DNA of 64,000 bases from Polyangiaceae bacterium (GCA_965225775.1 OZ245328.1:5564914-5628913), one strand, 5' to 3'. Counted from the first letter of the stretch, positions 31,004-43,261 are shown. Translations and numbers: made by a program. Notes: a model not told the origin generated them from the sequence alone.

Positions 31004-32998
31004 ATGCAGGAATACATTCCTTTCATTGCTTTGTTCGGGGCGGGGCTCGTCATTCTGTTCGGCGTCGGAGCGCTCTTCGCCCGATTTTACCGCCAGGTGG
31101 AGCAGGGCAAGGCGCTCATCGTGAACACCTCACGAGCGGAGCCGGCCGTCACCTTCACGGGCAAGCTCGTGCTGCCGGTGGTGAACCGCGCCGAGATCAT
31201 GGACTTGTCGGTCAAGACCATCCAGATCGACCGACGGGGCAAAGAAGGCCTCATCTGCAACGACAACATCCGCGCGGACATCAACGTCACGTTCTTCGTG
31301 CGCGTGAACAAGACCGCGGAAGACGTGCTCAAGGTCGCCCAGTCGATCGGCTGCGCCCGCGCGAGCGACACCCGTACGCTGGTCGAGCTCTTCAACGCGA
31401 AGTTCTCCGAGGCGCTCAAGACCGTCGGAAAGCACTTCGATTTCGAGCAGCTCTATACGAAGCGCGACGAATTCAAGGATGCCATCATCAAGGTGATCGG
31501 CAAGGATCTGAACGGTTTCATCCTCGACGACGCCGCCATCGACTACCTCGAGCAGACGCCACTCGAGGCGCTCGACCGCGACAACATCATGGACTCGGAG
31601 GGTATCCGGAAGATCACGGCCCTCACCGTCGAGCGAAACGTGCAGACCAACGAGCTCCGCCAAAAGGAGCGAATGGAAGTCGGCAGCCAGAACCTGGCCG
31701 CGGACGAGGCGATCTTCCGCTTCGAGCAGCGCAAGGCCGAGGCCGAGGCCAAGAAGGCAAAAGAGATCGCAATCGCGCAATCCCGCGAACAGAACGAAGC
31801 GGCGCGGGTCTCGCTGGAAGAGCAGAAGAAGACCTTGCTCGTTCAGCACAAAAACGAGGAAGAGACCTTCATCGCGGCCGAAGTGAAGGCACGCGGCGTG
31901 GCGATCGCCCAGAAGAACCGCGAGCGCGAGGTGGCCATCGAGACCGAGCGCGTGGAGAAGGCTCGCCAGCTCGAGGTGGTGACTCGCGAGCGCGAAGTGG
32001 CCATTTCGACCTTGGCTCGTGACCGAGACCTCGAGGTGCAGCGCAAGGAAATCGCCGACGTGGTGCGCTCGCGCATCGCCGTCGACAAGACGGTCGCAGC
32101 GGAAGAAGAGCAGATCAAAGACCTTCGCACGACCGCGCAGGCCACCCGCGAGAAGGAGGTCGTGCGCTTGAACGCCGAGGCACAGGCGCAAGAGACCTTG
32201 GTCAAGTTGGTCAAGGCCGCCGAAGCGCAGGAGACCGCCGCCAAGCACAAGGCGCGCGAGAAGGTCATTTCGGCAGACGCCGATCTCGAGACGGCCGACA
32301 AGGTGGCGCGCGCCAAGATTCGATTGGCCGAGGGTGTCCAGGCCGAAGAGGCTGCCAAAGGGCTGGCTCAGGCTCGTGTCCGCGAGGCCGACGCCGTTGC
32401 CACGGAGAAGCTCGGCCTCGTGGAGGCCAAGGTGGCCTTCGAGAAAGCCTCGGCGACCGCCCAGGGAGAAGAGCGCCAAGGCCTTGCCAAGGTGACCGTT
32501 CGCCAGGCCGAAGCCGACGCCATCCAGAGGACCGGACTCGCCGAGGCCACGGTGGTGCGCGAGCGCATGACCGCGGAAGCGACGGGCATTCGGGAGAAGG
32601 CCGACGCCATGCGGTCGCTCGACGCGAGCTCCCGCGAGCACGAGGAGTTCCGCTTGACGCTCGAGCGCGACCGCACGGTGCAACTCGAGAGCATCAAGGC
32701 CCGCAAAGAGCAGGCCCAGGCCCAGGCCGACGTACTCGGCAAATCGCTCGCCAATGCGAAGTTCAATATCGTGGGCGGCGACGGGGCGTTCTTCGATCGC
32801 TACGTCAAGGCGATCGGAATCGGCCAATCGGTCGAAGGGGCCCTCGGCGAGAGCCCCACGCTGCGCGGCATGGCTCGTGAGCTGACGAGCGACGGCTCGC
32901 TCGACCCCGAGCTTGCCGGCCTCATCGAGCGCTTCTCGCGCGGCGACAAAGACGCCCAGAAGAAGCTGCTCGGCATGGTGAAGAAAGACGGCATTTGA
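31004..32998 (+). CDS. flotillin family (SPFH/band-7, YqiK-like) protein
   Basis: 664 aa; N-terminal TM helix, SPFH domain, long Ala/Glu/Lys/Arg coiled-coil flotillin region. Confidence 0.85.
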   Translation: MQEYIPFIALFGAGLVILFGVGALFARFYRQVEQGKALIVNTSRAEPAVTFTGKLVLPVVNRAEIMDLSVKTIQIDRRGKEGLICNDNIRADINVTFFVRVNKTAEDVLKVAQSIGCARASDTRTLVELFNAKFSEALKTVGKHFDFEQLYTKRDEFKDAIIKVIGKDLNGFILDDAAIDYLEQTPLEALDRDNIMDSEGIRKITALTVERNVQTNELRQKERMEVGSQNLAADEAIFRFEQRKAEAEAKKAKEIAIAQSREQNEAARVSLEEQKKTLLVQHKNEEETFIAAEVKARGVAIAQKNREREVAIETERVEKARQLEVVTREREVAISTLARDRDLEVQRKEIADVVRSRIAVDKTVAAEEEQIKDLRTTAQATREKEVVRLNAEAQAQETLVKLVKAAEAQETAAKHKAREKVISADADLETADKVARAKIRLAEGVQAEEAAKGLAQARVREADAVATEKLGLVEAKVAFEKASATAQGEERQGLAKVTVRQAEADAIQRTGLAEATVVRERMTAEATGIREKADAMRSLDASSREHEEFRLTLERDRTVQLESIKARKEQAQAQADVLGKSLANAKFNIVGGDGAFFDRYVKAIGIGQSVEGALGESPTLRGMARELTSDGSLDPELAGLIERFSRGDKDAQKKLLGMVKKDGI

Positions 32999-33330
32999 CG
33001 GCTCGCCGGCCTCTCCCGGGCCGACGACCGTCTCGTGTGCGAACAATCGGCTCGAACCACGAGCCACAGGTTCGGGCTCTCCACGAGGGCCCGAACGAGC
33101 CCCGGCTCTCCGCTGACTCAGCTGATATTGCCGACCTTGTCATCGGAGGACGCTGTCCTCCGCCCCACGGGCAAAAGCCCGCTGGGGGCCCACTCCAGGT
33201 TTTGGGTCCCGGCCCGAGACGGCCACGCATATCAGAATCGTGACCGTCGACTTGAAGACCGGGGTGAACGAACGTCGAGCCCTGCTCGACCCGACGGGCG
33301 CCTCGCGCGACCCGTCCACGGGGACGCGCC

Positions 33331-36300
33331 ATGTCCGAACGAAATGAAGAAGGCTCGGGCGTAGGCTCGCTCGACACCGGCAGCTACGAGGTCGTCAAAC
33401 AACGGCTGGTCGGGCATGTCGACGATCTCACGAAACGCGCCGAGCGGCTCAACGAGGCGCGCAAGGAGGTCTTCGGCTCGTCCGCCTTCGAGCTCTTGCA
33501 CACGAGCCGCGTGCGCACGACCAACGCGGCCCAACCGCGCGACATGATCTCGGTCGACGGGCATCTGCTCTTCGCGTTCGCGGTCACGCTCGGCTTGAAG
33601 AGCACCCCCGCGGTCGAAGACGTGTTCGCGCTCTACAAACTCGACCCCCACGCCGAGGGCGACGGTCTCGAGCCCATTTCGCTCGAGGGTACGTTCCTCT
33701 CCACTCCGGCCTTCGTCTCGGACTTCACGACGGCGTTCCGCTACGCGAAAAACGCCCGAATCCTCAAGCTCAAGAAGACCGACAAGCGCCTACTCGTCAT
33801 CGTCCAGATCGGCGACAAGCTGACCGACGTGCGCGTGTTCCGCTTCGGGATCGACGCCAAGGGCACGGTGGCCTACATCGACGCGCGCGGCGAAGAGGAC
33901 AACGTTCCTCCGGCGCCGTTCGCCTTCTCGTGGACGCGCACGGGGCGAGAACAACAAGTGATGGGTCCGCACCCGCACGTGAACGTGCTCGACGAAGTGT
34001 TCGTCGAGACCGTGGGCGGCGACCTCACCGTCAAGATCGAGAACAACACCAAAGACGGACGGGGCGTCTGGCGCGAGCCGGTGGCCGACCCCAATCAAAC
34101 CCTCGACGACGCCGAGATCTCGTATGCCAAGGTCGGCACGTTGATCTTGCTCCGGGTATTGCCCTATCGCGAAGAGAAGGCGCGTTACCTCGTCTACAAT
34201 ACCCTCAAAAAGAACGTCGTCCGCATCGACGCGATAGGCCAAGCCTGCCTCGAATTGCCCGAGGACCAAGGCATTCTCTTTCCGGGAGGCCACTACGTCG
34301 CCGCGCAAGAAGCACGCATCGTCGACGCCGACGTCTCCGACATGATCTACGAGGGCATGATCCGCGCGCCCAACGGCGAGGACGTCCTCTACGTGTTCTA
34401 CCGCGAGGAAGAGGGGCTCTACCTCCAACTGCCCTACAACCTCATCACCAAGGACCTGGGCGCGCCGGTGCGCGGCCACGGGTACAGCCTGCTCGAAGAC
34501 GGCACCATGCCGCTCTTCCGCGCGCCCGAGGGGGCAGAGGCCACGCGCGTCCACCCCTTCCAGGTCTGGAAGACACCGTTTTCCAGCTTGGAAGAGGCCG
34601 AGCGAGCCGGGCGAGCACGCGGCGGCGACTCGTATCTGGCCAAGGTCGGCAATCCGGCTCTGGTACGCGGAATCAGCGACGCCTTCGCCATTCGGAAACT
34701 CGCGCTCACCGACTCCCCTACCCGACGCACGTTCGAGGAGCTGTGCACACAAGCCGCGCGCGCCATCGACGACCACTATTGGATTGGGCACACCGAGGCG
34801 TTCGACCTCAAGAGCGCCCTCAAAGAAGTCCGCAAGAGCGCCGACGCGGTGTTGCTCGAGTTCGAGAAGGTCGAGGCGTACAAGGCGCAGGCCGAAAAGG
34901 CCCTCGCGGATGCCGCGGAGGCACAGAAAGAGCTCTTTCGTTCGCAGCGACCCGAAGACGTGCCCTCCGCAGAGAGCTACCTCGCCGCGCTCTCCGCGCT
35001 GCGTACGCAACGAGGCAAGCTCGTCGCGCTGCGTGAGCTCCGATACGTGGACCTTGCAGCTATCGACGTCCTGGAGAAGGGGGTCGACGCGCGCTTCGCC
35101 GAGGTGCGTGGTTCCTGCGTCTCGTATTTCGAATCGGAGACGGCTTGGGCTCCGGTCACCGCCGGGCTGGACGAGCTCTCGGCCAAGATCGAGGCGACCA
35201 CGAAGAGCGTCGAGCTCGCACAGCACCAGACGAAGCTCGACACGCTGCACGCACAGCTCTTGCTGCTCGGGGAGACCGTCTCCGGGCTCGAGGTCGACGA
35301 CGCCACCGTGCGCACGCGCGTGCTCGAGCAACTCTCCAAGGCACTCGCCGTGCTCAATCGTGTGCGGGCGTCGTTCGAGGCCAAGCGGAAAGAGCACTAC
35401 GGGCGTGAGGGCCGCGCGGAGCTCGCCGTGCAGCTCGGGGTGTTCGCGCAGGCGGTCGGCGCCGCGGTAGGCTCTTGCCGAACACCGGAGGAATGCGACG
35501 CCGAGCTCGGCAAGCTGCTCCTCCGATTGGAAGAGCTCTCGGGTAGATTCGGCGAGCTGGTCGAGTTCGCGGAGGAAATCGACAAGAAGCGGGAAGAGGT
35601 CACCGAGACCTTCGGCTCGCGAAGGCAGACCCTATCCGACGAGCGCCACAAGCGCGCCGAGGCCCTCGCCACCGCGGGCGAGCGCATGCTCCAGGGCATC
35701 GTCCGCAAGAGCGAGACGTTCGCCGACGAAGAAGAGCTGCTCGCCTACTTCGCCAGCGACCCGATGGTGCAGAAGGTCGCCGATTCGGCCCAAAAACTCG
35801 GCGCGCTCGGGGAGAACGTTCGCGCCGACGAAATGGCCACTCGCCTCAAGGTCGCCAAGCAAGACGCGGTCCGAAAGCTGCGCGACAAACGAGAGCTGCG
35901 CGACGGCGACGGCGTGAAGCTCGGAGGCTTCACGTTCTCGGTCACGAAGAGCGCCGTCGACCTGGTAGTCGTCCCCAAAGACGGCAAATTGGCGCTCCAT
36001 TTGACGGGCACGGACTTCTACGACCCGCTCGAAGCCCCCGAGCTCGACGAGCTCTCGGACGTCTGGGAGCAATCGCTCGCCAGCGAGTCGAAGGCCGTCT
36101 ATCGCGCCGAATACCTGGCCTTCCGCATTCTCGACGACGCAGTGCTCGGGCGCGAAGGACTCGACCTCGCCAAGTTGCGCGAGGCCGTCCGCGAGGGAAA
36201 GCTCGGTCTATTGGTGTCGGACGTGGCCGCCAAGCGCCTCGACGAAGGCTACGAGCGCGGCGTCCACGACCTCGACGCGACGGCCATCCTCGGGCAGCTC

Positions 36301-38850
36301 CTGCCGGCCTTCGAGGCGGCTGGCCCCTTGAGGTTCACGCCCGAAGCCCGCGCTCTCGCCATGACCTACGTGGCGGACTCGCCGCCCGAAGAGCGGCGAA
36401 TTCTGACCAAACGAGCCCAGAGCGTGGCCCGCCTCTCGTCCGTCTTGGGTGAGCCCCGAGGATTGTCGGAGTTGAAGAGCGAGCTGCGGCCTTTGCTGCA
36501 GGCCTACGCCGAAGGCATCGGCCAGCCTCAATCGCAGCAGACCTGCGAGGACGCCGCCGACGTCGTGGTGGAGACCCTCGCCCAGAAGGTGCCTCGCTTC
36601 CCCGTCGCACGCGCCTCGGACGAAGGCGCCAAGATGCTCCGTCGCAAGCTCGAAGACGGCGGAGAGTACCGCGCTCTACAGGACGATCTCGAGGCCCTCG
36701 CGGATCGACCCAAGGAGCGCGCGAGCCTGGCCTCTCAATACGCGCGGAGCTTGGAGAAGCTCGCCTCTCCCCTCTCGACCTTCGCGCACGAGGTGGCCGC
36801 CATCTTGCTGACCGAGGGCAAGATCGACCGCGAAGTTCTGTCGGCCGAGACACGCCTCGACGTCGTTGGATTGCTCGGCACTCACGAGCGTATCGTCGAC
36901 GGCGGACTGGTGCTCGAGCTCGCCGAGACGCTCGTACGCTTGCGCCACTTCGAGACCGTCACGGCCTCGCGATTCCGCCTCTTCCGTACCCGCCGCACGC
37001 GCGTACTGGAGCGCGAGCGCGAGCGCATGCGACTCTCGGAGCTCGTCCCCAAGGTGCTCTCGTCGTTCGTGCGCAACAAGCTCATCAGCGAGGTCTATCT
37101 CCCCTTGGTGGGGCAGAACCTCGCCAAGCAGATCGGGGCGTCGGGTGACCAAAAGCGCACCGACCGAATGGGCCTCCTCTTCTTGGTCTCCCCGCCCGGC
37201 TACGGCAAGACCACGCTGATGGAGTACGTGGCGAGCGTGCTCGGATTGGTCTTCGTGAAGGTCAACGGCCCCGCGCTCGGCCACGACGTCCACTCGCTCG
37301 ATCCGGCCGAGTGCAAGAGCCTCACGGCGCGCCAGGAGGTCGAGCGCATCAATCTCGGCTTCGAGATGGGCAACAACGTGATGCTCTACCTCGACGACGT
37401 TCAGCACACGTCGCCCGAGCTCTTGGAGAAATTCATCAGCTTGTGCGACGCCCAACGCAAAGTAGAGGGCGTTTACCGAGGAAAGAGCCGCACCTACGAT
37501 TTCCGAGGCAAGCGTTTTTGCGTCATCATGGCGGCCAATCCGTACACCGAGACGGGCGCGCGTTTCCGTATCCCGGACATGCTCGCCAATCGCGCGGACA
37601 CCTACAATCTCGGTGAAGTCCTAGGCGCAAAGCAAGACCTCTTCGCGCTCAGCTACGTCGAGAACGCACTCACTTCGCATCCGGTGCTCTCGCCCCTGTC
37701 CGGACGCGAACCGGAAGATCTCTACAAGCTCGTTCGCATGGCCAAGGGGGAAGAGATTCCCGCCTCGGAGCTCTCGCACGGCTACTCGGGGGCCGAGATC
37801 ACCGACATTCTCGCCATGCTGCGCCTGCTCGGCCGGGTTCAAGACGTGCTCTTGCGCGTCAATCACACGTACATCAAAGCCGCCTCCCAGGAAGACGCCT
37901 TCCGCACCGAACCGCCCTTCAAGCTCCAGGGCAGCTACCGAAACATGAACAAGATCACGCAGAAGCTCGCGCCGGTCATGACCGTCGACGAGCTCGAGCG
38001 TACGATCGACGAGCACTACGCGGCCGAGTCGCAGACTCTCACCACGGGCGCCGAGCAGAACCTCTTGAAGCTCGCCGAGCTGCGCGATCGCCTCGACCAG
38101 ACGGGGCGCGCGCGATGGGAAGAAATCAAAGAGGCCTTCAAGCGGACCCGGCGCGGGGGCAAAGAGGGCGACGACCCGGTGGCACGAATGACCGGATCCA
38201 TCTCCGGCGTGGAAGAGCAGCTTCAATTCCTCAACAAGGCCGTGGTGAGTGCGGCCCGCAGCGCCGAGGCGGCGGCCGAACGACCCAAAGACGACTCGCT
38301 CGCCGCGGCCCTCGAGCGACTGGGCGAAGGCGTGGGGAAGCTGGCCAAACAAGACGTACGCGTCACGCTCGCCAATCCGCACCCACAAGTGGTCGAGCTC
38401 GAGGCCATCGTGCAGCTCGGCCAGGCCATGGCCAATGCCGTCGCTCGGGTCTCGGGCCCCGAGTCGGGCGCGTCACAAGCCATCGTGGCCAAATTGGCCG
38501 AGCTCGAGGCCATGCTGGAGCGGCGCTCCGTGGTCGACAAACGACCGGTCGAAGTCGACCTTCGCAAGGGAGACTCGACCAATCTCTTCTGCGACTCGGC
38601 GGGGCTCGTGAAGGGCGTGTTCGTGGGCACCTACGCCAAGGCTCCCGCTCTCCGCAGCGACCTGGTGCTCCAGCTCGTCTTCCCGGGGAACGTCACGGCA
38701 GCCGCCCGCGGCGTCGTCGCGTTCGTGCAGGACGAAGACGGGGATCGACCCGCCGGCTACGGGGTGGCCTTCACCGAGCTCGAAAACGACGGACGAGAGC
38801 TCGTGGCACGTTATGCTCGGGGTCGAGACCCCGTGCTCTACGAGCTGTGA
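33331..38850 (+). CDS. giant (1839 aa) multidomain protein: N-terminal beta-rich region, long coiled-coil/helical regions, P-loop NTPase (AAA-like) domain, C-terminal PilZ-like domain
   Basis: Walker A LFLVSPPGYGKTTL, Walker B VMLYLDDVQ, sensor-like CVIMAANPYTE, Arg RFRIPDM; C-terminal segment ERRSVVDKRPVEVDL...DSAGLVKGVFVGT resembles degenerate PilZ RxxxR / DxSxGG motifs. Confidence 0.7.
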   Translation: MSERNEEGSGVGSLDTGSYEVVKQRLVGHVDDLTKRAERLNEARKEVFGSSAFELLHTSRVRTTNAAQPRDMISVDGHLLFAFAVTLGLKSTPAVEDVFALYKLDPHAEGDGLEPISLEGTFLSTPAFVSDFTTAFRYAKNARILKLKKTDKRLLVIVQIGDKLTDVRVFRFGIDAKGTVAYIDARGEEDNVPPAPFAFSWTRTGREQQVMGPHPHVNVLDEVFVETVGGDLTVKIENNTKDGRGVWREPVADPNQTLDDAEISYAKVGTLILLRVLPYREEKARYLVYNTLKKNVVRIDAIGQACLELPEDQGILFPGGHYVAAQEARIVDADVSDMIYEGMIRAPNGEDVLYVFYREEEGLYLQLPYNLITKDLGAPVRGHGYSLLEDGTMPLFRAPEGAEATRVHPFQVWKTPFSSLEEAERAGRARGGDSYLAKVGNPALVRGISDAFAIRKLALTDSPTRRTFEELCTQAARAIDDHYWIGHTEAFDLKSALKEVRKSADAVLLEFEKVEAYKAQAEKALADAAEAQKELFRSQRPEDVPSAESYLAALSALRTQRGKLVALRELRYVDLAAIDVLEKGVDARFAEVRGSCVSYFESETAWAPVTAGLDELSAKIEATTKSVELAQHQTKLDTLHAQLLLLGETVSGLEVDDATVRTRVLEQLSKALAVLNRVRASFEAKRKEHYGREGRAELAVQLGVFAQAVGAAVGSCRTPEECDAELGKLLLRLEELSGRFGELVEFAEEIDKKREEVTETFGSRRQTLSDERHKRAEALATAGERMLQGIVRKSETFADEEELLAYFASDPMVQKVADSAQKLGALGENVRADEMATRLKVAKQDAVRKLRDKRELRDGDGVKLGGFTFSVTKSAVDLVVVPKDGKLALHLTGTDFYDPLEAPELDELSDVWEQSLASESKAVYRAEYLAFRILDDAVLGREGLDLAKLREAVREGKLGLLVSDVAAKRLDEGYERGVHDLDATAILGQLLPAFEAAGPLRFTPEARALAMTYVADSPPEERRILTKRAQSVARLSSVLGEPRGLSELKSELRPLLQAYAEGIGQPQSQQTCEDAADVVVETLAQKVPRFPVARASDEGAKMLRRKLEDGGEYRALQDDLEALADRPKERASLASQYARSLEKLASPLSTFAHEVAAILLTEGKIDREVLSAETRLDVVGLLGTHERIVDGGLVLELAETLVRLRHFETVTASRFRLFRTRRTRVLERERERMRLSELVPKVLSSFVRNKLISEVYLPLVGQNLAKQIGASGDQKRTDRMGLLFLVSPPGYGKTTLMEYVASVLGLVFVKVNGPALGHDVHSLDPAECKSLTARQEVERINLGFEMGNNVMLYLDDVQHTSPELLEKFISLCDAQRKVEGVYRGKSRTYDFRGKRFCVIMAANPYTETGARFRIPDMLANRADTYNLGEVLGAKQDLFALSYVENALTSHPVLSPLSGREPEDLYKLVRMAKGEEIPASELSHGYSGAEITDILAMLRLLGRVQDVLLRVNHTYIKAASQEDAFRTEPPFKLQGSYRNMNKITQKLAPVMTVDELERTIDEHYAAESQTLTTGAEQNLLKLAELRDRLDQTGRARWEEIKEAFKRTRRGGKEGDDPVARMTGSISGVEEQLQFLNKAVVSAARSAEAAAERPKDDSLAAALERLGEGVGKLAKQDVRVTLANPHPQVVELEAIVQLGQAMANAVARVSGPESGASQAIVAKLAELEAMLERRSVVDKRPVEVDLRKGDSTNLFCDSAGLVKGVFVGTYAKAPALRSDLVLQLVFPGNVTAAARGVVAFVQDEDGDRPAGYGVAFTELENDGRELVARYARGRDPVLYEL

Positions 38851-38936
38851 CAGGACACATGGGGCAAAGCGCCCCGGAGTGCGTGACCGCACGGAGGCGA
38901 CCCCGGCCTTCTCGAGGTTATTTCGACAGGATTTGC

Positions 38937-38952
38937 GGACGGCCCGACCGTT
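38937..38952 (+). promoter_or_regulatory. weak candidate sigma-54 (-24/-12) promoter upstream of REC-REC operon
   Basis: GG(38938-39)-N10-GC(38950-51): acGGcccgaccgttGCt; -12 TTGCT matches, -24 poor. Confidence 0.25.
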
Positions 38953-38979
38953 GCTATGCCCTCATGACCGACGGAAAGG

Positions 38980-39349
38980 AGGCTCTATCATGTCGAACGA
39001 TCTCGTCACGCCCTGGACCGTCTTCGTCATCGACGACGACGACGACAACCGAGAGCTCACCGCCATGCTGCTGACCTCGCGAGGGGCCAACGTGCTCACG
39101 GCGGGCAGCTACGACGAGGCCCTCGGGCGCCTCGCGGAGACCTCGCCCGACCTCGTCTTGTGCGACTTGTCGCTCGGCTCCCACAGTGGAGAGGAAATCC
39201 TCGCCGCGTTCCGCGCCCGCGGGTGCACGGCCGACATCTGGGCCATGACCGGCCACGATACCGCTCCCGAAGGCTTTCGCGGTCTACTCCGCAAGCCGTT
39301 CGGCGCGGACAAGCTGGACGCTCTGGTGCGTCAATCCGGACGGAGCTGA
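38980..39349 (+). CDS. single-domain response regulator (CheY-like REC)
   Basis: 123 aa; ATG 38980 preceded by AAGGAGG; acidic pocket VIDDDDDN, phospho-acceptor CDLSLG, conserved T and K. Confidence 0.75.
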
Positions 39350-39352
39350 GCC

Positions 39353-39811
39353 ATGCACCTCGAGAGGCCACGCACCACGGTCGAAGCGGAAGACGATGCC
39401 GAGCCGCCCTCGTTCGCCGGGGGGGCTCTCGCGGGCGTGCACGTGCTCGTGGTCGACGACGACGAATCGTTGGCGGAGCTGTTCGTCCGCACTCTACGGG
39501 GTGCGGGGGCGAATGTGCGTTCTACACCGAATGGCCGCGATGCCCTCGAGGCACTCCGCGACGGGGCGTTCGACGTGCTGGTGAGCGACCTGGACATGCC
39601 CCACCTCGACGGGCTAGGGCTCGTCTCCGAGCTGCGCGCGTCGGAGCGCCACCGAGGCTTGCCCGCCCTCGCCCTCACGGGGTCCACCATGCCCGACGTT
39701 CGGCGGCGCGCGCTCGAGGCGGGCTTCGATGCATTCGCCACCAAGCCGGTCTTGGCGGACGATCTGGTTGCGGCCGTTCGAAGCCTGCTCGCCACGAGAG
39801 CGCGCACCTGA
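39353..39811 (+). CDS. single-domain response regulator (CheY-like REC) with about 30-aa N-terminal extension
   Basis: 152 aa; VLVVDDDES, SDLDMPHLDG, ALTGST, KP motifs. Confidence 0.7.
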   Translation: MHLERPRTTVEAEDDAEPPSFAGGALAGVHVLVVDDDESLAELFVRTLRGAGANVRSTPNGRDALEALRDGAFDVLVSDLDMPHLDGLGLVSELRASERHRGLPALALTGSTMPDVRRRALEAGFDAFATKPVLADDLVAAVRSLLATRART

Positions 39812-39939
39812 CCCTCGGAGGATTGCGAGCCGCTCGCGGGTTCTGCGAGCGCCGATCGGCCGAACGTCGGGGCGAGTCGGCGTCGGTGCAGGAGGGGCGA
39901 TCGCTCTGGACCGCTACCTCTGCCGTGTACGGCAACGCG

Positions 39940-40599
39940 TCAGAGCGCGGCGACGCGCAGCTCGACTCGACCGCCTTTGTGGGTCTTCACCGTGAGCTCC
40001 CCGCCGTGTCCGCGCGCGATGGCCGCAGCGATGGGAAGTGACACGCCGAGACCATTGGTCGTGGTTGGGCAATCGACGTCGAATCCATCCGGAAACCCCG
40101 GACCGTCGTCCTGGAAGCGAATCAGTAGTCCCGATGCCGAAGATTCGATCGTCAGGTGCGCCTGACTCTTGGCGAAGCGAACGGCATTCAATCCCAGCTC
40201 GACCATGGCAGCGCCCAACAATCGACCGTCGACCGGGAGGTGTGGGACTTCGGGGACCGTCTTGCCGAGAACGATGGACTTCCTATTGGAAGCCTCGTTG
40301 ACCTTCTTCACGACGTCGTCCACCAGGAGGAAAATATCGGTCGGCGCACGCACGACGACCACGCCGAGCCTTTGAATCTCGGAAAAGAGGGCGATCTTCT
40401 CGGACAGCCGAAGCATCTTTTGGGCGCCTCGAGCCGCGAGCGGCAAGAGTGTCTCGAGAGGAGCGCCGGGCTCCTTCGCTTGGTCGAGCGAGGAGGACAC
40501 GATTCCTGCGTGGCCCCGGAGATCGTGAGCCAATCGACGGAGGAACGGGTCCATCAAGCGGTCGAACCCTTCCGCATCGCGCGTGTAGATCCAGCGCAC
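39940..40599 (-). CDS. small cytoplasmic histidine kinase (HisKA + HATPase_c, no sensor domain)
   Basis: 219 aa, GTG start 40599; H-box LAHDLRGH; G-boxes DDGPGFP, GLGVSLPIAAAIARGHGGEL. Confidence 0.7.
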   Translation of the reverse strand: MRWIYTRDAEGFDRLMDPFLRRLAHDLRGHAGIVSSSLDQAKEPGAPLETLLPLAARGAQKMLRLSEKIALFSEIQRLGVVVVRAPTDIFLLVDDVVKKVNEASNRKSIVLGKTVPEVPHLPVDGRLLGAAMVELGLNAVRFAKSQAHLTIESSASGLLIRFQDDGPGFPDGFDVDCPTTTNGLGVSLPIAAAIARGHGGELTVKTHKGGRVELRVAAL

Positions 40600-40600
40600 G

Positions 40601-42013
40601 TCAGCCTACTCGTGGGCCAGGGCTCTGATTCCCGGCGGTCGGTGAGCTATTGGTCACGTCGTAGCGATCGAGCTTTCGGTACAGCGTTCGCCGGTCGAGC
40701 CCGAGCATTTGCGCGGCTTTGGACTTGTTGCCGCCGACCAGCTTGAGCACCTGCCCGATGTAGCGACGCTCGAGCTCGTCCACCGTGACGATCTCGTTCA
40801 TCGTCTCGGCCGAGATGACCACGCGGTTGTTGCGGTAGGCGCGAATGCGCTCGGGGAGGTCTTCGGGAGTGATTTCGTGGAAGCGAGCCATGGCTACCGC
40901 TCGTTCGATGCAATTCTCGAGCTCACGCACGTTACCCGGCCACTCGTAGGCGAGAAGCTTCTCGGCGGCGGCCACCGAGAGCGTCAAGGGCTCGGTTCGC
41001 GAGGTGCGCTTGGCCATGGTCTCCACGAAGTGAGCGGCCAGCTCCAACACGTCCTTCGCGCGCTCTCGAAGCGGCGGCAAATCGATCTTGACCACGTTGA
41101 TACGGAAATAGAGGTCTTCTCGGAAGCGCTTGTGGAAGATCTCTTCTTCGAGGTCTCGATTGGTAGCCGCCACGATACGAGCGTCGAACGGCACTTCCGT
41201 ATTGGAACCGACAGGACGAACCGTGCGCTCCTGTAGAGCACGCAGGAGCTTCGCCTGCATCTCGAGGGGCATCTCCCCGATCTCGTCGAGGAAGAGCGTT
41301 CCGCCGGTCGCCTGGACGAAGATACCGGTACGAGGAGCCTTGGCGTCCGTGAACGCGCCGCGGGCATGTCCGAAGAGCTCGCTCTCCAAAAGATTGGCGG
41401 GAACCGCGGCGCAGTTGATGGCGACGAATGGACCGTCGGAGCGGCGCGATTGCGAGTGAATGGATCGGGCCACGAGCTCCTTGCCGGTTCCCGTTTCGCC
41501 CCACACGAGCACGGACGCCTCGCTCGAGGCGACGCGACCGACGAGATCGTTCACCTTCGACATCGCCGTGCTCGATCCGACGAGGTTGGCGGGGCGGGAA
41601 CCGCACTCGACCAGATTGGCGAGGCGCTTCACCTCGTGCTGCAAGTGACGCGTCTGAATTGCGCGGCCGATGCTCGGGCCGAGGAGCTTCGCGTCGACCG
41701 GTTTGGTCAAGAAGTCGTATGCGCCGACGCGCAGTGCAGCGATGGCGGACTCCATACTGCCCTGCCCGGTCAACACGACGATCGGTAGTCCGGGGCGGCT
41801 CCCGAGGGCACGCTCGCAGAGGGCCAATCCGTCCATTTCGTCCATTCCGAGATCGGTCACGAGGACGTCGAAGTCGGTGGAGACGAGGCGCTCGAGGGCG
41901 TCGTTCGGCGACGTGGTGGTGGTGACCTTGTGACCAGCCGACTTGAGGACCGACGAGACGAGCTCGAGAACGTCTTCGTCGTCGTCGACCGCGAGGATTC
42001 GCCCGGTGTTCAT
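40601..42013 (-). CDS. sigma-54-dependent response regulator / enhancer-binding protein (NtrC family: REC + AAA+ sigma54 activator + Fis-type HTH)
   Basis: 470 aa, ATG 42013; REC ILAVDDDEDVL...VLVTDLGMDEMDG; Walker A GETGTGKE; GAFTDA; ESELFGH; C-terminal HTH RRTLYRKLDRY. Confidence 0.85.
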   Translation of the reverse strand: MNTGRILAVDDDEDVLELVSSVLKSAGHKVTTTTSPNDALERLVSTDFDVLVTDLGMDEMDGLALCERALGSRPGLPIVVLTGQGSMESAIAALRVGAYDFLTKPVDAKLLGPSIGRAIQTRHLQHEVKRLANLVECGSRPANLVGSSTAMSKVNDLVGRVASSEASVLVWGETGTGKELVARSIHSQSRRSDGPFVAINCAAVPANLLESELFGHARGAFTDAKAPRTGIFVQATGGTLFLDEIGEMPLEMQAKLLRALQERTVRPVGSNTEVPFDARIVAATNRDLEEEIFHKRFREDLYFRINVVKIDLPPLRERAKDVLELAAHFVETMAKRTSRTEPLTLSVAAAEKLLAYEWPGNVRELENCIERAVAMARFHEITPEDLPERIRAYRNNRVVISAETMNEIVTVDELERRYIGQVLKLVGGNKSKAAQMLGLDRRTLYRKLDRYDVTNSSPTAGNQSPGPRVG

Positions 42014-42447: not shown

Positions 42448-42766
42448 CCATTCCGACCGAACGCCTCGGGCTCGTCGCGCGGATCGCGGGCGGTCCCTTC
42501 GACAGCGGGAGCTCGCCTCGGCGACTCCCGCTTTCGTCATTTCGACTCGGCAAGTGGCGCTCGGGAGACGGAAACGACCCAGCGAGCGCGTTTGCCGGTA
42601 CGCCAAATCGCGACACGCGGGGCAGCCATGCCGTGCCCTCTCGCGCGGTCGACGCCGAATCTACCCAATACGTCGGTGATGAACACATGGCACGAGCACT
42701 GCAATCCCTCGAACCGACTCGCATCGACGATCGATGCGCGTGACCAACCCCTCAGGAGACTCGATC

Positions 42767-43261
42767 ATGCGAACCACTCTGCTCTCTCTCGCCGCCTTCG
42801 CCACCTTCGCGACTCTCGCCGCCTGCGACAAGTCCGCAGCCGACGCGAAGCGCGAGGCCGACGAAGCCACGAACGCGGCGCAAAAGTCCGCGGTCGAAGC
42901 GACGCGCAAGGTGGAGGAGACGACCAAGGAGGCGGAGAAGAAGGTCGGCGACCTGCAGGACAAGGCGGCCGACGCCAAGACCCAGGCCGAGCAAGCCGCC
43001 AAGCGCGAGCGTATCGAGCTCCGCGAGAAGGCGCAGAAGGAGCTCGCGACCCTCCAATCCAAGATCGAGAAGGCCGAAATGGATCTCAAGAGCGCCAAGG
43101 CCGACGTGAAGGTCGAGAAGGAGAAGGCACTCGCCGGATTGCGTGCCAGCCGCGACGCCCTCACGACCGACCTCGCCGAGCTCGACAAGGTCGTCGACCT
43201 CGAGTGGCTCGCCTTCAAACAGCGGGTCGAGCGCGATCTCGACAAGGCTCAAAAGGGCTGA
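42767..43261 (+). CDS. coiled-coil lipoprotein (Lys/Glu/Ala-rich)
   Basis: ATG 42767 after AGGAG; lipobox LAAC; KREADEATNAAQK... amphipathic repeats. Confidence 0.5.
   Translation: MRTTLLSLAAFATFATLAACDKSAADAKREADEATNAAQKSAVEATRKVEETTKEAEKKVGDLQDKAADAKTQAEQAAKRERIELREKAQKELATLQSKIEKAEMDLKSAKADVKVEKEKALAGLRASRDALTTDLAELDKVVDLEWLAFKQRVERDLDKAQKG

Follow-up and report, generated by a model that had tools for sequence, protein, structure and literature searches.

The 64,000-nucleotide (nt) stretch of DNA from a Polyangiaceae bacterium analysed here (GCA_965225775.1, OZ245328.1:5564914-5628913; "the window" refers to this whole stretch) carries the gene for a giant AAA+ ATPase, which is preceded by genes for a YqiJ/YuaF-type membrane protein and a YqiK-type flotillin (Table 1). 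It is, with very high confidence, a member of the YqiJ-flotillin-AAA+ operon type: a flotillin gene lies directly upstream on the same strand, a gene for a YqiJ-type protein with three transmembrane (TM) segments lies before it, and the ATPase itself consists of propeller-like, helical and AAA+ parts. An earlier note on this DNA regarded the ATPase as a unit with the signalling genes that follow it. The three co-oriented genes upstream were absent from that description, and the real partners are found among them.

Table 1. Genes and protein regions at the ATPase locus, with the operon first and its neighbours below; positions are counted from the first letter of the window (aa, amino acids; c-di-GMP, cyclic di-GMP; REC, receiver domain)
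Feature	Position	Strand	Remark
YqiJ/YuaF (short NfeD-like) membrane protein, 249 aa	30172..30921	+	First conserved gene of the operon
YqiK-type flotillin, 664 aa: TM segment, SPFH/Band-7 domain, long Glu/Ala-rich helical region, flotillin C-terminus	31004..32998	+	
Giant soluble AAA+ ATPase, 1839 aa, ATG start	33331..38850	+	DUF3686 family; database name 'DNA repair ATPase'
ATPase, N-terminal module: helix, divergent beta-propeller-like domain, helices	33424..34779	+	Pfam DUF3686, aa 32-483
ATPase, predicted helical rod or bundle, ~800 aa, including DUF7902 (aa 605-688)	34780..37170	+	Pfam and composition
ATPase, single AAA+ module (aa 1281-1430), lid and conserved helical extension to ~aa 1640	37171..38250	+	
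ATPase, C-terminal PilZ-like barrel and helix (aa ~1740-1839), without c-di-GMP motifs	38548..38847	+	Polyangia-type homologues only
Small K+-channel-pore-like protein, 135 aa	29762..30169	+	Lineage-specific neighbour; ends 3 nt before the start of the YqiJ-like gene
TerB-domain membrane protein, 321 aa	28638..29606	-	Divergent from the operon; Pfam TerB, E = 5e-8
Stand-alone REC protein	38990..39349	+	Outside the conserved system
Stand-alone REC protein	39353..39811	+	Outside the conserved system
Sensor-less histidine kinase, 219 aa, DHp/H-box and HATPase_c only	39940..40599	-	Outside the conserved system
NtrC-type activator: REC, sigma-54 and HTH_8 domains	40601..42013	-	Outside the conserved system

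The open reading frame (ORF) of the ATPase is uninterrupted, in agreement with the single gene of about 5.5 kilobases (kb) and 1839 aa that had been described before. Its product belongs to the Pfam family DUF3686 (PF12458, 'ATPase involved in DNA repair'): the match to aa 32-483 (E = 1.4e-166) scores 555 bits against a cut-off of 25 and covers the model completely (positions 1-448 of 448). Further Pfam matches were obtained for DUF7902 (aa 605-688, E = 9e-21) and, weakly, for AAA/AAA_5 (aa 1283-1406). No hydrophobic segment was found in the 1839 residues, and the protein is predicted to be soluble. Structure models were calculated for aa 1-520 and aa 1225-1839. The AlphaFold model of the first part, built from a 49-sequence alignment, is confident (predicted local distance difference test (pLDDT) 88, predicted TM-score (pTM) 0.86) and comprises a long N-terminal helix, a beta-rich region (aa 54-414) and C-terminal helices packing onto the first helix. 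The top PDB matches of this model in Foldseek are all beta-propellers (Elp1, YncE, paraoxonase, sialidases, DCAF1), with E values of 1e-6 to 1e-4, yet their TM-scores are low (0.3-0.4). Because of this combination, the modelled N-terminal head is described here as a divergent propeller-like domain without a close solved relative. The middle region (aa ~500-1225) has a helix-favouring composition (A/E/L/K/R/Q 56%, P+G 9%), and the corresponding segment of related proteins was termed coiled coil by Ravi et al. (2024; PMC11237479). Pfam matches, models and composition thus agree with the order of regions proposed in the earlier note, i.e., beta-rich, helical, AAA+ and degenerate PilZ fold.

The model of aa 1225-1839 (pLDDT 77) contains one AAA+ core, a lid, additional helices and a C-terminal beta-barrel with a helix. 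The Walker A motif (SPPGYGKTTL, K1293), the Walker B motif (LYLDDIQH, D1355-D1356; aa 1351-1360, positions 37381-37410) and the sensor-1 asparagine (N1403 in MAANP) are invariant in all 79 homologues compared, which originate from several phyla. All three had been recognized before (as GYGKTT, hhhhDD and MAANP). The arginine of 'FRIP' (R1413) that had been added to them is, however, variable among the homologues (37 K, 30 R, 10 Q, 2 E), whereas R1421 (IPDMLANRAD) is invariant in 79/79 and ends the helix before beta-5 in the model; for these reasons R1421 appears to be the likelier arginine-finger candidate. With Walker A, Walker B, sensor-1, an arginine-finger candidate and a core with helical lid in the model, the module is an AAA+ module, and its catalytic motifs are, judging from the alignment, under selection. 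Between Walker B and the sensor-1 strand the model places a beta-hairpin (aa 1378-1389; strands 1378-1382 and 1385-1389; pLDDT ~73-77). The structural neighbours of the core found with Foldseek include RuvB (E = 6e-8), NorQ of the MoxR family (TM-score by target 0.57-0.61), MCM and Lon; the PDB search gave 732 matches at E<=0.001, and the 50 matches listed are all AAA+ proteins. By sequence, the P-loop half alone matches solved proteins, namely Rix7 and p97 (classical AAA) and RuvB. The predicted hairpin and the top folds would fit the pre-sensor-1 beta-hairpin superclade (RuvB, MoxR, MCM, Lon), whereas in sequence the P-loop half is closer to classical AAA proteins such as Rix7 and p97. The core had been called 'AAA/STAND-like' in the earlier note. 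The first half of this designation holds, given the motifs and the RuvB, NorQ, MCM and Lon folds; a STAND NTPase was considered and rejected, as no NACHT, NB-ARC or other STAND-type domain was found in Pfam and NCBIfam searches of the ATPase and the structural neighbours are AAA+ ring ATPases.

The two proteins encoded upstream are less easily recognized. Searches of Pfam, NCBIfam and PDB with the single flotillin-like or YqiJ-like sequence gave no matches, so that both partners could be resolved only through profiles of their orthologues and hhalign comparison with E. coli YqiK and YqiJ. The flotillin profile (23 orthologues) aligns with E. coli YqiK over 410 columns (probability 99.9%, E = 4.1e-33), and its top PDB matches are QmcA and Flotillin-1, though weak. 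Two of the orthologues match Pfam Band_7, and the names given to the orthologues by the Prokaryotic Genome Annotation Pipeline (PGAP) are 'SPFH domain-containing protein' or 'flotillin family protein'. The profile of the YqiJ-like family matches E. coli YqiJ with a probability of 90.4% (E = 1.4e-6), and Pfam YqiJ_N is matched by 4 of 19 orthologues. The flotillin has one N-terminal TM segment (aa 3-29); in the YqiJ-like protein, hydrophobic segments were recognized at three places (aa 1-35, 103-127 and 133-159), together with a C-terminal OB-like segment. TM segments are therefore present in both partners and absent from the ATPase.

For the analysis of gene order, 81 loci with 10 kb on each side of the ATPase gene were fetched, each protein of the window was compared with them using tblastn, and the flanking ORFs were clustered and the clusters annotated with Pfam. 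A flotillin gene is located upstream of the ATPase gene on the same strand in 77 of the 81 loci (directly adjacent in 75), the identity of the encoded flotillins being 42-87%. The YqiJ-like gene precedes the flotillin gene in 72 loci according to clustering and in 63 according to tblastn. The family is large: at least 3845 ATPase homologues were found at E<=1e-5, with at least 565 confirmed matches in species-representative genomes, and the N-terminal domain is present in 640 clusters (50% identity), where it nearly always forms the beginning of a protein 1600-2000 aa in length. The ATPases of the family are ~1600-1900 aa long and, between phyla, 42-54% identical over ~1620 residues. Loci with a linked flotillin gene come from at least six phyla, with representatives in Myxococcota, Gamma- and Betaproteobacteria, Actinomycetota, Planctomycetota and Acidobacteriota, and the module is also carried by large plasmids of Pseudomonas, Streptomyces, Deinococcus and Hymenobacter (13 plasmid records, including pQBR103).

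Apart from the flotillin and YqiJ-like genes, several other genes recur in the surroundings. DUF2170/YjfI and PspA genes are found upstream in 23 loci, mainly of gammaproteobacteria (e.g., L028, L030, L045), genes for a rhomboid protein (8 loci) or a PLD-like protein (10 loci) are found downstream, and TelA is encoded in 7 loci. On pQBR103 (L082), a whole series of genes (YjfI-PspA-rhomboid-DUF2491-DUF350-DUF1190-glutathionylspermidine synthase) lies directly upstream. In extended versions of the operon, DUF2170/YjfI and PspA upstream are combined with rhomboid and PLD-like or TelA genes downstream. A TerD gene was seen on a Streptomyces plasmid. All recurrent partners point to membrane or envelope stress and none to DNA repair. 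The reading suggested by the databases, an ATPase that works on DNA in its repair, can call upon the Pfam description, the NCBI product name and the presence of RuvB in the top group of structures similar to the AAA+ module. The likeness to RuvB is limited to the generic AAA+ core, for which NorQ, MCM and Lon score equally, no DNA-binding or nuclease domain was found in the Pfam and NCBIfam searches of the ATPase, and the conserved neighbours encode membrane proteins or belong to envelope-stress responses, repair genes never being among them; we regard this function as hardly credible. We infer that the name was probably passed on from legacy annotation given to ATPases with long coiled coils, the SbcC-type COG being a parallel case.

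The same distribution might bring to mind a module for conflict or anti-phage defence that is associated with the membrane; the ATPase would then sense infection and trigger damage to the membrane or its phospholipids. Its patchy occurrence over phyla, the 13 records from large plasmids and the PLD-like and rhomboid genes downstream in some loci would fit such a role. We nevertheless consider it improbable: the PADLOC search of the ATPase returned zero families at E<=0.1, the high conservation (42-79% identity across phyla) and the stable synteny are unlike those of fast-evolving defence genes, and the neighbours are stress-response genes rather than genes of defence islands.

The genes on the other side of the ATPase gene behave differently from the operon. 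Two genes for stand-alone REC proteins start 139 nt downstream, the first with the strong ribosome-binding site AAGGAGG 7 nt before its ATG start codon, and the genes for a sensor-less histidine kinase and an NtrC-type sigma-54 activator follow on the opposite strand; domains and site are as had been reported. However, the proposal of the earlier note that these genes form a unit with the ATPase gene fails when related genomes are compared, a comparison that the note itself had named as a possible refutation. The exact ATPase sequence of the window was not found in public assemblies, and a 95%-identical contig (P0001) and four relatives of 75-79% identity were used in its place. The REC/REC/kinase/NtrC adjacency was seen only in the window and in P0001; it was absent in 80 loci of species-representative genomes and in the four relatives, which have no REC, kinase or NtrC gene downstream. 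In the four relatives the downstream gene encodes a Ser/Thr kinase-DsbA fusion (P0003), a thioesterase (P0005) or a 345-aa protein (P0006), or small ORFs follow (P0008). A homologue of the kinase was never found by tblastn within 10 kb in the 81 loci; matches to REC or NtrC-like proteins are scattered over a few of them, only one (L076) being directly downstream. The adjacency thus seems to be a species-level coincidence of gene order.

The DNA was also scanned for signs of a regulatory link through sigma-54. The pattern TGGCAC-N5-TTGC with <=2 mismatches gave no sigma-54 promoter match upstream of either the operon or the ATPase gene, and the 50 matches in the window compare with 51 expected, i.e., they occur at chance level. 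One of the two sites with a single mismatch, the best one (TGGCACGAGCACTGC, 42688-42702, plus strand), is located a short distance upstream of a small ORF (42734-43261) that is followed by a PP2C phosphatase gene, and this operon for a 161-aa protein and the phosphatase is situated beside the NtrC gene, divergent from the NtrC/kinase operon. Although such matches occur at chance frequency, the 161-aa/PP2C operon is a more plausible target of the NtrC-type activator than the ATPase gene. No Rfam family was detected in the whole window, hence no riboswitch for c-di-GMP or another ligand.

The C-terminal tail of the ATPase is the feature that sets the protein of the window apart from most of its family. 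Its last 139 aa match TIGR02266 (28.5 bits, E = 1.3e-6) and Pfam PilZ (PF07238; 18.1 bits, E = 0.0034), both under the cut-off; they begin at positions 28 and 42 of the models and cover the C-terminal two-thirds only. In the structure model (model residues 516-607), the tail forms a barrel-like beta domain of six strands with a helix (pLDDT 87-95). As Foldseek with the C-terminal model returned AAA+ matches only, the PilZ fold was tested with a sequence profile: Pfam PilZ is matched by 12 of 14 homologous tails (best E = 1.3e-8), and the profile of the tails matches exactly four PDB sequences, all of them Xanthomonas PilZ (3dsg, 4f48, 7lkq and 3cnr; E = 5e-5 to 3e-4). The degenerate PilZ-like barrel of the earlier note is thereby confirmed, the barrel and helix of the model, the PF07238 matches of homologous tails and the exclusive match of their profile to PilZ structures all being in agreement. 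The domain is rare: of the ~75 complete homologues that the fetched loci contain, 7 possess it, all of the Polyangia type (Labilithrix, Polyangiaceae and related metagenome-assembled genomes). No hidden PilZ domain was found in the tails of homologues from outside Polyangia (including Myxococcus, Corallococcus and Archangium), which consist of low-complexity linkers and a short conserved helix. These tails (L007, L013, L018, L057, L072 and others) are Ala/Pro/Gln-rich, 60-280 aa long and end in a short conserved helical element (e.g., '...VVNQPVPGLD..L..LA..IE.S..P...'), which is kept in the protein of the window at ~aa 1675-1710, before the PilZ domain.

A response of this domain to c-di-GMP, also considered possible in the earlier note, is doubtful. 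The RxxxR motif is absent (the window has RRSVVDKR with wrong spacing, and the homologues have one arginine, in PRFDV), as is [D/N]xSxxG (AGLVKG in the window; DVVxxGG in the homologues, with V in place of S). Xanthomonas PilZ fails to bind c-di-GMP and docks onto the ATPase PilB and onto FimX. Since both motifs are missing and the sole solved sequence relatives are these non-binding proteins, the tail is more likely to be a protein-docking module than a c-di-GMP sensor. This bears on the idea that the ATPase is a motor or scaffold under c-di-GMP and two-component/sigma-54 control, with c-di-GMP bound by the PilZ domain and both receivers phosphorylated by the kinase to control the ATPase. A PilZ-like fold is indeed present, the two REC genes with their strong ribosome-binding site and the kinase and NtrC genes are close by, and NtrC-like activators are encoded within 10 kb in two further Myxococcota loci (L004, L036). 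We consider such control very improbable, for its linkage is gone in every relative under 95% identity, the ligand-binding motifs are missing, the best sigma-54-type site faces the 161-aa/PP2C operon instead of the ATPase gene, and the majority of family members do without a PilZ domain.

Two further genes next to the operon are confined to few genomes. The 135-aa protein encoded directly before the YqiJ-like protein has matches in Pfam (Ion_trans_2, E = 4.6e-5) and in NCBIfam (K_channel_Meth, E = 7e-6) and shows 'SVGYCD' at the place where a selectivity filter would be expected, with no strong hydrophobic segment. In 8 Myxococcota loci its gene accompanies the operon, in some of them on the opposite strand. 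Channels are known to be regulated by SPFH proteins, and the channel-like protein may be a lineage-specific client. The divergently encoded TerB protein has one TM segment and weak DUF697-like and C-terminal SHOCT-like matches; it is kept in the closest relatives only (P0001, L001, L084, L085). Other Ter-type stress genes, TelA and TerD, recur elsewhere, as mentioned above.

What could the conserved three-gene module do? On balance, we favour the view that the ATPase is an ATP-driven remodeller working on flotillin/YqiJ membrane assemblies, as a subunit of this module, because its gene is inherited together with those of the flotillin and the YqiJ-like protein, often near PspA-type stress genes, and because its catalytic motifs are strictly conserved. 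The flotillin and the YqiJ-like protein would together build an oligomeric SPFH assembly at the inner membrane, on its cytoplasmic face, in keeping with what has been established for QmcA-YbbJ, HflK/C and eukaryotic flotillins (cited in PMC13086221). The ATPase, probably a ring oligomer, would dock onto this assembly via its propeller and helical-bundle head and use ATP to assemble, disassemble or service it, or to extract clients, during envelope stress, by analogy with Vps4 acting on ESCRT-III/PspA-type polymers or with FtsH inside the HflK/C cage. In the Polyangia lineage, the C-terminal PilZ-like domain would have been added as a module for protein-protein docking, as Xanthomonas PilZ is for PilB and FimX. 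More tentatively, the DUF3686 ATPases might be machines dedicated to the assembly or disassembly of flotillin (SPFH) cages in a Vps4-like manner, their activity or localisation in Polyangia being gated via the docking PilZ domain; this is a possibility that we hold with considerably less confidence.

A related and partly overlapping explanation is that of a quality-control unfoldase which would extract or unfold damaged membrane proteins in a flotillin microdomain, e.g., for rhomboid or other proteases, instead of remodelling the flotillin. The flotillin context is identical for both, a rhomboid gene is present downstream in 8 loci, and there are precedents in FtsH inside HflK/C and in S. aureus FloA-NfeD, which stabilises unfolded proteins (reviewed in PMC13086221). 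Direct reading of the sequence after beta-2 (aa 1307-1330) revealed, however, no canonical aromatic pore loop, and clustering of the 81 loci showed no protease consistently linked to the operon. An unfoldase therefore appears rather unlikely.

The remodeller favoured here has to be weighed against several findings. First, the gap between the flotillin and ATPase genes (32999-33330) is longer in the window (332 nt) than in the 95%-identical contig (172 nt) or in other close relatives (8-130 nt), so that co-transcription is not assured. It may represent an insertion or contain an internal terminator or promoter. A hairpin followed by a T-run was noted within it at 33182-33207, and the gap has no Rfam match. 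Second, a few homologues, namely L019, L005 (Labilithrix-type) and L069, have no flotillin gene next to them: either none exists within 10 kb, or it is found at a distance of 3.5-6.5 kb. These homologues may be paralogues which moved out of the operon. Some of the homologues without an adjacent flotillin gene have PilZ tails. Third, the Walker B motif ends in DD, with no glutamate in any of the 79 homologues, leaving the mechanism and rate of hydrolysis uncertain. We take it to resemble the DnaA-type 'DDIQ' Walker B, and such a motif may mean that ATP hydrolysis is stimulated by a partner instead of being constitutive. Fourth, ~700 residues of the middle region fall outside the structure models, which include only its ends (aa 484-520 and 1225-1280). 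Finally, the evidence on function is contextual throughout: no experimental work on any member of the DUF3686 family was found in the literature, and the earlier note was right in treating the function of the giant protein as not known. No paper naming DUF3686 or PF12458 was found in the library searched, nor was one that links a 'DNA repair ATPase' with flotillin or that combines PilZ, flotillin and AAA+.

The physiological role of bacterial flotillin/SPFH scaffolds is still debated, and to our knowledge no ATP-dependent factor that builds, dismantles or services them has been described. For such a factor, a giant AAA+ ATPase that is almost always encoded right behind a flotillin, in six or more phyla and also on several large plasmids, presents a concrete candidate. 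If it does prove to be a machine for cage assembly or disassembly, it would be the missing energy-consuming regulator of flotillin microdomains. Relabelling also matters, as thousands of database entries carry the unsupported name 'DNA repair ATPase'. The Polyangia-specific PilZ tail, in turn, offers a natural handle for finding interaction partners. As far as the window itself is concerned, our main result is corrective: the signalling neighbourhood is incidental, the architecture is already in the literature, and the window adds little to it beyond the accretion of the PilZ domain.

The architecture, which the earlier note did not recognize as described, is that of Pfam DUF3686, and the operon was reported by Ravi et al. 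(2024, mSystems; PMC11237479) in a survey of partners of phage-shock proteins, which ties it to envelope stress of the phage-shock type. It consists there, with Dokdonia ANH61663.1 as an example, of YqiJ/YuaF, a protein with Band-7, coiled-coil and flotillin parts, and a 'Betapropeller+Coiled-coil+AAA-ATPase' protein, and occurs with or without CesT/Tir-PspA; the abbreviated form lacking the latter is widely distributed (PMC11237479). The genes, their order and the order of domains in the ATPase are the same in the window, which corresponds to the form without CesT/Tir-PspA. It differs in the C-terminal PilZ-like domain, not mentioned in PMC11237479, and in the lineage-specific K-channel-like and TerB neighbours; the published description is likewise computational only. 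In sum, a flotillin-linked AAA+ system already noted computationally is present here in a PilZ-tailed form specific to Polyangia.

More distant relatives are the NfeD-flotillin pairs YqiJ-YqiK of E. coli and YuaF-FloT of B. subtilis, which are homologous to the first two genes and share their membrane topology. In E. coli K-12 no ATPase gene follows yqiK, and the flotillin of the window is ~110 aa longer. With HflK/C-FtsH, where an SPFH cage surrounds an AAA+ protease, and with Vps4 and its ESCRT-III/PspA polymers, the system has in common the principle of a membrane-scaffold polymer combined with an AAA+ machine. Homology to FtsH and Vps4 is restricted to the AAA+ core: the ATPase of the window possesses no protease domain, MIT domain or TM anchor and, in contrast to these members of the classical clade, has a predicted hairpin before sensor 1. 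NorQ/CbbQ (MoxR) and RuvB, the best structural matches to core and lid, share with the ATPase an 'NP' after sensor 1 and, as predicted by the model, the hairpin. Identity to them is 14-18%; there is no VWA partner and there are no RuvA-binding features, the Walker B motif has DD rather than DE, and the N- and C-terminal extensions add ~1300 aa. The PilZ-like tail, finally, resembles Xanthomonas PilZ (Xac1133/Xc1028; 3cnr, 3dsg, 4f48, 7lkq) and P. aeruginosa PilZ (PA2960) in having neither RxxxR nor D/NxSxxG. No FimX- or PilB-like partner was identified for it, and unlike the free-standing Xanthomonas proteins it is fused to its ATPase and has a fuller barrel in the model.

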